64,000 nucleotides of DNA from an uncultured delta proteobacterium (GTDB taxonomy: Bacteria; Myxococcota_A; Polyangia; Polyangiales; B10-G4), in NCBI GenBank assembly GCA_963727445.1, contig CAVSGI010000015.1:352001-416000 (forward strand). The letters run 5' to 3'. Positions 15,001 to 18,000 of the stretch are shown here, piece by piece (the stretch's first letter is position 1; every line of letters starts with the position of its first letter). Position numbers: made by a program.

Positions 15001-18000
15001 GCTTCGAGGCGATCGATCTTCGCGGCGAAGGCGTCGTCTTGATCGCGATACACGGGGCGGATCCAGCCTACGTTGGCGATGTGCAGCGCCGAAGCGCTAC
15101 GCGCGCAACCTCAAAGGGACGGGATCTTGCGCGCCGGCTGTGCGATCGCGCCGGGAAGGCGCTGCGCGAGAGGCCAGTTGGGCGCGGGGCGCGTCGCACG
15201 CTCGAGGACGGCGCGCTTCTCGGCGGGAAGGCTCACGAGCCACGCGTCATCGGCGTGGGGCTTCTCGCGGGTGAGGGTGAAGGGCAGAGCCGGGGGCTCG
15301 GGCGCCGAGACCAACTGCGCCTCGTGGCTTCCGTCGACCACGGTGGGCATGTCCTCGAAGCCCGTGGGCATGAGCTCGAGCTCCTTCTTCATCTCCGCTG
15401 CGGTGACTTGCTTCATGACCCAACTCCTCGTCTCGACCCGGAACAACGCAGGCTCCATGCCACCTGCACCTACATGGGTCAAGCGGGAGATCATTGTGGA
15501 AAAGCACCAGCAAGGTGGCGGATCGATCAGCCAGCACTGACAAGCGCGTCGTGGATCTGTGAGCTGACTCAGAGGCGAGCGCGTTCGCCGAACTGCCGCT
15601 CCATCTCGGCGGCGTGCTCGAGGACGTGATCGCGGCGCTCGAAGAGGTCGTCGAGCTGCCTATCGCTCAGGAACGGCGCGAGGGGATCCTGGGCCATGCG
15701 CCGCTCGAGGCGCGCGCGGTCGAGCCGACGGAGACGCCCGAGCGTGCTCCACCGGAAGCGCTGAAGGGCGTGGAGGCGCGCGTCCATGAGCGGCACGCGC
15801 GCGCCGCGAGGACCCGCCGTGAAGCCAGCGCCGTTGTCGAGATAGATCAGCGGGCCGGCCTCGCCGCGGGTGCGCACGTTCTGGAAGTTGCCACCCCAGC
15901 GGTCGACGTTCGTGGTCAGGTAGTCGAAGACGATCATGTCGCTGAGCTCGGCGGCGCGGTCTTCGGTGTCGGGGGTGTCGGCGGCGATCTCGCCTTCGGT
16001 CTGCACGTGGGCGTCGCGCCAGTCGCGCGGGCGCTGGTAGGGCGAGATGAGCAGCGAGCTCTCGTTGCGCACCCACTTGTCCCACCGTCGGCCGGCGTTC
16101 AGTCGCTCGAGTCGCTCGGGGATCCACCAGATGAAGGCGCCGCGCACGGTGCCGTCCTCCTGGACGATCACCTCGTCCACGCGCTCGTCGCCCATCGCCG
16201 CCTGACGGAGCGGCTCCCATTCGATCACGCGACCGATGGTCGGCGGGACCCGGCCGAGACCGAGCTCTCGGTCGAGGTAGTAGGCGCCGAGCTCGGAGTA
16301 GAAATGCGCAGCCGAGAAGGTCTGCTCCGGCTTGTAGTAGCCGACGGTTCCGTCGGCGAGGGTGACCTTGAAGGCGAGAGAGCGTCCGCCGTGGCCGCGC
16401 TCGACTTCCACGATCTCCTCGTTGGCGAGGGCGTCGCGCATGTCGTGATCGAGCTCGCCCAGGAAGCGGCTCCGGCGATCGACCTCGACAGGCGTGGGCG
16501 ATTCCGCCGGCTCTGGGGTGGGCGCTTCGGCTTCGGCGGGCTCCTGCTGGGCGCCGGGATCGTCGGGGGCGACGGTCGGCGCGGGCTCATGCGCGCGCAT
16601 GACCGGCGGGTTCGGGGGGGCGGAAGCAGAAGCCTGATCGCAGGCCGAGAGCAGGGGGGCCGCCGCCACCGACAGGACGAGGAGGAGGTGTCTACACATG
16701 CGTCTTTCCTTTGTCGCTCGGATCAGCGAATCGGGCCAGAAACGTGTCCTGGCGCACGCGATCGTGTCGCCGCTGGAACACGCGATGGCGTCGATTGCCA
16801 GGGCCTGAGCGTGGGTCCGGCGGTTGCAGCAGCGGAGGCTCGATGCGCGGGACGCTGCTCTTTCTTCTGTTCACGATCGCCTTGTCGTCGGGGCGCGCGC
16901 TCGCGCAGGAGGCGCACTCGGACGTCTGGTCCGAGCCGAATCCGGGCGTTCGATATCTCCACCGCACGACGGACCTGCCGTGCACCATCCATGCCCTGGT
17001 CGTGGACCTCTCGGCGGACGGCGTGCGGATCGAAGCGACGCCCTACGAGGAACGCTGGCAGTCCGTGGGGAGCTGGGCGCGTGAGACGGACGCCGTCGCC
17101 GCGGTGAACGGCGGGTTCTGGAGCGGGTTCGCGCGTCCCGATGGCATCGCGGCCGGCGGCGGCGAGCCGTGGCCCGGCGCCGAGGACGACGCCGACCACG
17201 GCTTCTTTGCGGTGGATGATTCGGGTCGCGCGTTCATCAGCCCGCCCGAGGTGGTGGAGGAAGAGATCCCATCACGGGTGCGCGGCGCCGTCTCCGGCCG
17301 GCCGATGATCGTGCGCGGCGGCGAGGTCGACACGCTGTCCCTCGACACCTTCGAGCACGCGCGCAATCGGCACCCCCGGACCGCGGTGGGCGTGTCGCGG
17401 GATGGGCGCACCGTGTACTTCGTGGTCGCCGACGGGCGGCGCGCCCACAGCCGCGGGCAGAACCTCTACGAGCTCGCGGAGCTCATGCGGGAGCTCGGTG
17501 CCTACGACGCGATCAACCTCGACGGCGGCGGGTCGAGCACGATGTACGTCGAGTCCCTCGGGGGCGTCGTGAACGCGCCGAGCGGCGGGCGATGGGAGTC
17601 GGCGTTGGGGCTCGGCGCCGACGAGGAGGTGGCGCGAGAGCGGGTGGCGCGAGACGGGATTCAGGAGAGCTGGGTGCGCGGTGTCGAGCGCGAGGTCATG
17701 AATCACGTCGGCGTGTTCGCGCCGCGCCCGGAGTCGATGGACGTGGCTTCGGCCAACGACACGCTGCCGCGACCGGACGACGTTAGAGCGCCCTCGGCCC
17801 CGCCACCGCGCGCGCCGCTCTTCCGTCTCGGCACGGCGCGCGAGGTTCTCTATCCACTGCTCTGGGGATTCGTCTGCGCCGTCCCGCTCTTCCTCGCCCT
17901 CGCGATCTGGAGACGTCGCCGTCGCGCGTGAGGTTTCACTGGATCGGCGGCCACGCATTGGCGACATTTCCGCTGATGACGGCGGTCGCGCAGCAGGTCT

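Follow-up and report, generated by a model that had tools for sequence, protein, structure and literature searches.

The window, a 64,000-nucleotide stretch of one contig, carries on its minus strand (15569..16699) a 376-amino acid open reading frame (P0001) predicted to encode an exported kinase resembling the Fam20 and Four-jointed enzymes. A Shine–Dalgarno-like AAGGA could be read from the sequence 7 nucleotides ahead of the ATG (16707..16711, minus strand), and no sigma-70 promoter or terminator consensus was found at the kinase locus. The predicted protein opens with a signal peptide (residues 1–19, within a hydrophobic stretch spanning residues 2–20) and a lipobox, LSA-C20 (together 16640..16699, minus strand), which also occurs in close homologues; both the reading frame and the lipobox agree with the first-pass annotation. 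A Pro/Ala/Glu-rich linker (residues 21–73; 16481..16639, minus strand) follows, which varies among homologues and is likely to serve as a flexible tether. The remainder of the protein (residues 74–376; 15572..16480, minus strand) is a cysteine-free kinase domain. Within this domain, and likewise on the minus strand, were located a Gly-rich loop, G104-G105-R106-S107 (16379..16390), where Fam20 has GGTQ or GGSQ and Four-jointed has CGRM; the ion pair K123...E136 with its short connecting loop (16292..16333); the catalytic loop, D259-YLTT-N264-V-D266-R267-W268-GGNFQ-N274, as defined by alignment of homologues (15878..15925); and the metal-binding D288-N289, equivalent to DFG (15833..15838), a motif role taken from passages of PMC3416761.

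On these features the kinase is probably exported and lipid-anchored at C20. When the top 120 homologues were sorted by a rough rule based on hydropathy and the lipobox, 43 showed a lipobox, 72 a hydrophobic N terminus alone, and 5 neither; the lipobox is thus less general than the 37 of 38 homologues first reported. Among representatives of clusters at 50% identity, some of which are fragments, the corresponding numbers were 20, 10, and 7 for 37 closer sequences and 23, 26, and 14 for 63 distant ones of at least 320 amino acids. Other family members have signal peptides, signal anchors, or, in long forms, a central membrane helix; export is the common trait and the lipid anchor one of several types. 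Family members of 751 and 759 amino acids exist; a profile search of proteins of 703–2005 amino acids returned none, a blank that is uninformative.

Divergent from the kinase gene lies a gene for a NAGPA-like phosphodiester glycosidase (16843..17931, plus strand; PF09992, 132.5 bits), the product of which has an N-terminal signal and a C-terminal membrane anchor. The same divergent position is occupied by such a gene in 7 of 24 positive relatives, with 7 family codes, when flanks of 1.5 kb are considered; a functional link to the kinase is putative. Downstream of the kinase, a small co-directional open reading frame of no known family (15111..15494, minus strand) is kept in place in 7 of the 24 relatives. 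An agmatine deiminase gene follows the kinase in 9 of the 24 and is present at 36 of 62 orthologue loci, a count in which duplicates and near kin were left in. A link between the deiminase and the kinase was considered and rejected, as the genome under study has no match over the cut-off and genes for Fic, thioredoxin, and DnaE2 lie in the same block; the adjacency was read as old gene order. The kinase block and the neighborhood of the paralogue are otherwise housekeeping in character, with no neighbor standing out and no clear pointer to a substrate.

Relationship to Fam20 and Four-jointed kinases

The kinase matched PF06702 at 39.6 bits (cut-off 26.8), scored 16.3 bits with TIGR03843 (the SCO1664 family), far under the cut-off of 172.4, and gave no match to PF00454 at E ≤ 0.1. 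Six sequences in the PDB were matched at E < 0.01, every one a Fam20 protein (E 5.7e-8 to 6.2e-3), as had been claimed, and the best was hydra Fam20 (PDB 5xom/5xoo, E 5.7e-8). Homologues numbered 507 at 90% clustering, in agreement with the earlier figure, and 649 at 50% clustering. A profile built from 56 bacterial homologues found human Fam20C with an E value of 1.9e-39 and hydra Fam20 with 1.4e-28, compared with 0.022 for PI4K2. A structure model based on 141 homologues (25–88% identity) reached a pLDDT of 97 and a pTM of 0.94, and Foldseek again placed Fam20 at the top (E 7.8e-16, TM 0.72 by query; PI4K2, 3.7e-6), so that the Fam20-first ranking was reproduced with a better model. In the unbiased VIA fold search, Fam20 proteins scored Z 20.6–25.6, followed by PI4K2 (16.3), CtkA (13.9), actin-fragmin kinase (12.9), HipA (11.6), and CotH (11.2); the top match, hydra Fam20 (Z 25.6 over 269 residues, rmsd 2.8), tied with Fam20C (25.5). 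No Four-jointed structure is present in the fold and PDB match lists, which are therefore silent on closeness to Four-jointed.

For comparison at the sequence level, full-length Four-jointed and Fam20 frames were taken from a metagenome motif scan, among at least 120 matches. Three of the frames are Fam20C-like (L168, L187, and L218) and one Fam20B-like (L209), labels that were assigned from motifs given in part of PMC5865150; a further three are Four-jointed-like and arthropod-like (L150, L152, and L163), and L150 falls in a cluster that bears the name four-jointed box protein 1 and contains a termite record. The bacterial family profile scored Fam20 at 111–135 bits and Four-jointed at 70–92 bits, whereas the single kinase sequence gave a tie (33, 29, and 18 bits for Four-jointed versus 32, 31, 31, and 20 bits for Fam20). 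Profile–profile scores were 233 for the bacterial family with Fam20, 213 with Four-jointed (E 4.8e-28), and 57 for Four-jointed with Fam20, the last being depressed by the shallowness of both alignments (6 and 4 rows).

Fam20C (PDB 5yh3, 5yh0, and 4kqa/4kqb) and the pseudokinase Fam20A (5wrr) share the fold of the whole domain with the bacterial kinase (Z 24.6–25.5 for 5yh0/4kqa, TM 0.65–0.72 by query), together with the patterns GG-x-x-L...KP, E-x-AA-x-x-LDR-x-LG, FD-x-L-x-x-N-x-DR, and LDNG, the C-lobe pattern R-x-ST...DP-x-x-P-x-L...R, and an N-terminal export signal. The bacterial kinase differs in having a K–E loop 13 residues shorter, without Glu306 or the F-Y-F-x-D motif; in lacking the Cys-rich insertion and disulfides; in having DRW rather than DRH, an Asn in the catalytic loop, and Ala at the Clash3 Arg; and in its lipoprotein anchor. 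Judged from the three copies L150, L152, and L163, Four-jointed/FJX1 resembles the kinase in several respects: G-R in the Gly-rich loop, a short K–E loop, no Cys-rich insertion, a hydrophobic residue in place of His after DR, the catalytic-loop Asn, and a near-identical SD-x-x-x-FDYLT-x-N-x-DR. Four-jointed in turn has an Arg at the position of the β3 Lys and a catalytic loop 12–13 residues longer, with an NN-x-x-N-x-QW insert that is invariant in the Four-jointed alignment, neither of which is seen in the kinase.

Small, uncharacterized exported kinases of the SCO1664/PI4K-like kind from Acidobacteriota and Aminicenantota (P0270–P0389) likewise have a short K–E loop, FD-x-L-x-x-N-x-DR, and IDN, and score 61–83 bits with the bacterial family profile, but differ in having DRH-x-NN, no N-lobe helical segment, and another C-lobe; their own profile scores Fam20 at only 14–29 bits. 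PI4K type II, HipA, actin-fragmin kinase, and CotH, a bacterial kinase of the spore coat, belong to the same atypical kinase branch (Z 11–16), with much lower scores and without the C-lobe sequence pattern of Fam20 and Four-jointed. Profile, fold, and tree all place the kinase nearer to Four-jointed and Fam20 than to any other atypical kinase compared, and it almost certainly represents a bacterial branch of the wider Four-jointed/Fam20 family.

The catalytic residues were examined in 141 diverse homologues. D259, R267, D288, and R355 were kept in all 141, N264 and N274 in 140, D266 in 138, K123 and E136 in 137, and N289 in 129; of the 136 rows with both K123 and E136, 130 had a spacing of 13. 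The residues described at first as invariant (38 of 38) are thus near-invariant, and the claim that the catalytic set is retained holds for K123, E136, D266, R267, D288, and N289 and fails for two Fam20 positions. The first of these is the His of DRH, which is W268 here and W in 119, F in 18, Y in 3, and L in 1 of the 141 homologues. The second is Glu306, which sits in a Fam20-specific β3–α3 loop (Asp152 in hydra): the K-to-E spacing is 24–26 in Fam20, 13 in the kinase, and 11 in Four-jointed, leaving the loop of the kinase 11–13 residues shorter than that of Fam20, and the residue aligned with Glu306 is A131, with Glu in only 5 of 141 homologues. According to passages of Cui 2015 (PMC4421793), Fam20C cannot do without Glu306, and the pseudokinase Fam20A has Gln in its place.

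Two residues are candidates for its replacement. E125, a position with Glu or Asp in 96 of 141 homologues, lies close by and may conceivably be a stand-in. N274, at the end of the catalytic loop, aligns with an Asn that Four-jointed and HipA-like proteins have; Fam20 has Thr there. An Asn at this position binds the second metal in kinases, and N274 would, by alignment, do the job of Glu306 here. Catalysis is very probably intact; one long relative (L268) lacks both catalytic aspartates.

Further Fam20 hallmarks are missing. The Cys-rich N-lobe insertion and four disulfides, described for Fam20 in passages of Zhang 2018 (PMC5865150), are absent: the kinase has no Cys beyond residue 20, 80 of 141 homologue cores have none at all, and none has more than three. 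Neither are the Fam20C motifs D/N-F/H-F-Y-F-S/T-D and C-D/S-Y-Y-C, nor the Clash3 Arg, as defined in the same part of that paper, present in the kinase. The kinase is therefore not filed as a member of Fam20A, Fam20B, or Fam20C, because three tested Fam20-defining features are missing, and the Fam20 (Golgi casein kinase/xylosylkinase) membership first assigned to it gives way to a loop anatomy that matches Four-jointed. The bacterial proteins are themselves uncharacterized. Set beside Fam20 and Four-jointed, which are Golgi kinases of animals, the kinase is a reduced relative.

Distribution and evolutionary origin

A family match was present in 24 of 25 sampled relatives, as first counted, 4 of the 24 being distant only (33–36% identity). 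A screen of 200 genomes drawn evenly from the phylum used a stricter first look (E ≤ 1e-20), making its counts a floor: matches were present in at least 27 of 34 genomes of the same order, in all 4 from elsewhere in the class, and in at least 21 of 162 from outside it, and 18 of these 21 belong to one family. The reported near-universality in Polyangiales is therefore to be tempered. The kinase family is common in the order and patchy elsewhere in the phylum. In a GTDB-wide motif scan, among the at least 120 loci listed, 96 scored above 100 bits; the phylum label is Myxococcota for 73 of these, Proteobacteria or Pseudomonadota for 10 (seven titles among these 10, all unclassified), and absent for 13. 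The other 24 loci come from many phyla and score below 60 bits. The motif pattern was derived from the kinase family and leaves room for other branches, one such being the small exported kinases labeled Acidobacteria (575 matches, 61–83 bits). No relative was found on viral contigs, by protein or by two motif patterns. The family is centered on Myxococcota, and the first-pass description is supported in its core: a protein predicted to be exported and to have a kinase fold, with Fam20 kinases as its nearest relatives of solved structure, in a family with this center.

PF06702, on which the unconfirmed first-pass figure of 116 in 118 genomes was based, is a poor census tool for this family. The second copy in the genome under study, on contig C21, scores 16.3 bits, under the cut-off, and three Four-jointed proteins score 19.6–25.7 bits against the cut-off of 26.8; because the paralogue is missed, counts based on PF06702 understate the family. 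The kinase is kept, mostly in at least two copies, in genomes of 2.7–3.3 Mb, and once in a genome of 1.8 Mb, a retention that suits a housekeeping role in the envelope.

The main tree, computed under LG+C20+F+G4 from 279 columns of 43 kinase cores, was rooted with the Acidobacteria group. The clade of the kinase, a second myxobacterial subclade (P0174 and P0187), Fam20, and Four-jointed formed one clade (99/97) inside a wider myxobacterial radiation, both animal groups being nested among myxobacterial proteins. A quick tree of 66 rows, which included HipA-like and other long rows as distant outgroups, recovered the same grouping (SH-aLRT 95) and placed Four-jointed inside the clade of the kinase; after 23 of the 66 rows were dropped (11 distant outgroup, 12 redundant or partial) and the rest realigned, Four-jointed moved beside Fam20. 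Its exact position is therefore unstable. Holding all 28 myxobacterial-type rows together was not rejected (AU p 0.063), nor was a single clade of Fam20 and Four-jointed (p 0.41); the clade of the kinase with Fam20 and without Four-jointed was missing from the best tree and borderline by the same test (AU p 0.0505). The stems of Fam20 and Four-jointed are long (2.0 and 2.8), the root rests on one long branch, and the eukaryotic sample consists of 11 rows, probably all animal, with Fam198 and protists left out. Read in this light, the trees favor, without establishing, a myxobacterial donor of animal Fam20 and Four-jointed.

The family had been presented at first as one treated as eukaryotic. 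This stands in the reviews consulted: the accessible text of a Fam20 review (PMC7948968) has no instance of "prokaryot" and one of "bacteri", in its references, and passages of a Legionella kinome paper (PMC9758233) describe the FAM20 cluster as eukaryote- or Metazoa-specific within a comparison of Legionella, human, and amoeba. It does not stand for a 2026 preprint (10.64898/2026.05.08.723234), a portion of which counts FAM20B as one of up to five contributions that Myxococcota may have made to the endomembrane functions of eukaryotes and calls the Myxococcota signal not always unequivocal. Within the literature searched, the scope of which left most subscription papers outside, bacterial relatives of Fam20 appear only in this one-line mention. 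The kinase is well supported as an exported bacterial branch of the Four-jointed/Fam20 family, the evolutionary link being already in one preprint.

Proposed function and alternatives

Extracytoplasmic phosphorylation, proposed in the first pass, is what we infer for the kinase. Taken as a whole, protein substrate included, the chances are about even that it is an active exported kinase of the bacterial branch whose acceptors, reached in the periplasm or on the cell surface, are Ser/Thr hydroxyls of exported proteins. The protein would be exported by Sec, lipidated at C20, and tethered through its 53-residue linker, and the domain is predicted by model and fold search to adopt a Fam20-type core. 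From general kinase knowledge, ATP and two divalent metals would be bound through K123–E136, D288, and N274, with D266 as the base and the conserved N274 acting in place of Fam20 Glu306. The predicted cleft is open as in Four-jointed, without the Fam20 loop, insertion, and sugar pocket, which would suit a folded protein substrate. ATP may be drawn from a small periplasmic pool, perhaps supplied by a nucleotide-transporter-like protein, and this is the weakest step of the scheme.

For E. coli, part of a review puts periplasmic ATP at 24 μM per 1e10 cells, the supply route being unknown (PMC7432876). Matches to TLC-family transporters (PF03219) were found in 21 of 26 genomes versus 0 of 14 controls; these matches are weak and partial (about 20–67 bits), none adjoins the kinase gene at 15569..16699, and four kinase-bearing genomes (G010, G015, G016, and G021) have none. 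A fusion of the kinase with an MFS protein, seen in two or three metagenome proteins only, was not enlisted as support for an ATP route, as a search at E ≤ 1e-45 found none among 301 genomes from the phylum.

This reading as a whole is favored by the profile and fold matches to Fam20, the near-invariant catalytic residues, an export signal or hydrophobic N terminus in 115 of the top 120 homologues (by the rough rule), the anatomy shared with Four-jointed, the retention in small genomes, the ATP of the E. coli periplasm, and the TLC distribution. Four-jointed is a kinase of cadherin-domain proteins (passages of PMC3416761), and no match to the cadherin domain PF00028 was found in the genome under study, which is 86% complete. 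This counts against the reading, as do the weak step of ATP supply, the weakness of the TLC matches, neighbors that give no clear substrate, and the loss of Glu306, which makes Fam20A a pseudokinase, with the N274 replacement resting on alignment.

The kinase might instead act on sugars carried by surface glycans, glycoproteins, or glycolipids and be paired with the NAGPA-like phosphodiesterase of the divergent gene, an alternative that we consider rather unlikely. Glycan phosphorylation is the state of the single Fam20 in sponge and hydra, according to part of PMC5865150, hydra Fam20 is the top structural match (with Fam20C in a tie), and the NAGPA-like protein, itself exported and membrane-anchored, is encoded divergently upstream here and in the relatives noted above. 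However, of the ten residues of the hydra Fam20 Gal-Xyl pocket defined in the same passages (T114, Q115, Y148, E149, G150, Y151, Y214, Y253, H301, and K321), none is kept when mapped by motif: His301 is Trp, Lys321 is Ala, Tyr253 is Val, and the 148–151 loop and the Tyr214 insertion are missing, as are the disulfides. The NAGPA link is also no tighter than that to the agmatine deiminase or the small open reading frame and may thus reflect old gene order.

It is improbable that the kinase is released as an enzyme of predation or competition acting on molecules of prey or host. Such a role would solve the problem of ATP supply, ATP coming from lysed or invaded cells, and it is in keeping with the presence of at least 6 copies in genome G016 and with the ATP carried by outer-membrane vesicles of E. 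coli (part of PMC7432876). A stable presence in one or two copies, in conserved housekeeping blocks and also in very small genomes, argues otherwise, as do the floor of 21 in 162 other genomes of the phylum (E ≤ 1e-20) and the lipid or membrane anchors, which suit retention. More improbable still is a non-phosphorylating nucleotide binder or ATPase, a pseudokinase-like sensor of extracytoplasmic ATP. The kinase does lack a Glu306 equivalent, the lesion that disables Fam20A in the passages of PMC4421793, and L268 has lost both catalytic aspartates; yet D266, N274, D288, K123, and E136 are kept in 137–141 of 141 homologues, and Four-jointed, an active kinase, likewise lacks the Fam20 loop. Least probable is phosphorylation of membrane lipids in the outer leaflet, after the manner of PI4K type II and SCO1664 enzymes, for which the membrane tether, the weak TIGR03843 match, and the place of PI4K2 as the next fold after Fam20 are outweighed by scores far under those of Fam20 and Four-jointed and by a long linker that keeps the domain away from its own anchor.

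Phosphorylation of exported proteins by an active kinase of this branch would bear on questions beyond the locus. Fam20 and Four-jointed kinases are the source of most of the known secreted phosphoproteome of animals, and the bacterial family may be near the lineage that gave rise to them. A bolder proposal, tentative and on balance doubtful, is that Polyangiales and their relatives have a dedicated system of ATP-dependent extracytoplasmic phosphorylation, that its paralogue-rich family gave eukaryotes the ancestor of Fam20 and Four-jointed, and that the Fam20 line later gained its Glu306 loop, disulfide-rich insertion, and sugar pocket. In this respect the kinase is a test case for gene donation by Myxococcota to eukaryotes. 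A small, cysteine-free bacterial protein near Fam20 and Four-jointed is also tractable for work on structure and mechanism, for example on whether a catalytic-loop Asn can replace Glu306, and through it the use of ATP for periplasmic phosphorylation in Gram-negative bacteria can be addressed directly.

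Gene neighbourhood of the kinase

In six loci of the exported Fam20/Four-jointed-like kinase family (L008, L011, L013, L015, L019 and L021), as well as in many GTDB loci, a co-directional agmatine deiminase gene starts within approximately 10–75 nt 3' of the kinase match, followed in many such loci by a carbon-nitrogen hydrolase gene. Within the window, genes for a thioredoxin-like protein (10682-11221), a Fic-domain protein (11332-12117) and a DUF2079 membrane protein (12881-14686), all on the plus strand, form part of a block that is conserved near the kinase in relatives. An ImuB-like (IMS) gene and then an error-prone DnaE2-like polymerase gene, on the minus strand (21156-25822), make up an ordinary mutasome cassette.

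Copy number and domain architecture

A second family member was located in the source genome, on the plus strand of contig C21 (309787-310914; L272:5788-6912). This paralogue, of 27% identity, scored 246 bits against the family profile and was not picked up by PF06702; its N-terminus is hydrophobic and the catalytic residues are all present, with D-H in place of D-N. At least six members were found in G016, and one is retained in G115, a 1.8-Mb genome in one contig. The source genome, of free-living size, also has TLC-family (ATP/ADP translocase-like) matches above the Pfam cut-off (C25:61446-62015 and C13:92353-92994).

An MFS transporter lies N-terminal to the kinase domain, with a further hydrophobic segment between, in P0198 (759 aa) and P0229 (517 aa, partial); P0204 is probably a third such fusion. 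These proteins are metagenome singletons, and none was found among 301 genomes of the phylum (E<=1e-45). Long forms with open frames of 720–1090 aa (L267:4041-6686, L269:4702-6870, L029:1106-4366 and L071:597-3152) begin at the N-terminus with a zinc-ribbon-like segment bearing a Cys pair and end with the kinase domain at the C-terminus; an extended region of low complexity and a single membrane helix lie in between. In the taxonomic family f32, 18 of 19 genomes had matches.

Small exported kinases and a likely pseudokinase

Small exported kinases carrying a DRH-x-NN motif (L245:3-635; P0270-P0389) form a family of their own, with 575 matches whose record names include Acidobacteria and Vicinamibacteria; Atlas clusters were from Acidobacteriota, Pseudomonadota and Aminicenantota. 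The myxobacterial family is nearer to Fam20, whereas these proteins are farther off. With E-R-F in place of D-R-x and H-N-G in place of D-N-G, the long paralogue at L268:309-4100 is likely a bacterial pseudokinase, which would make it a parallel case to the animal pseudokinase Fam20A.
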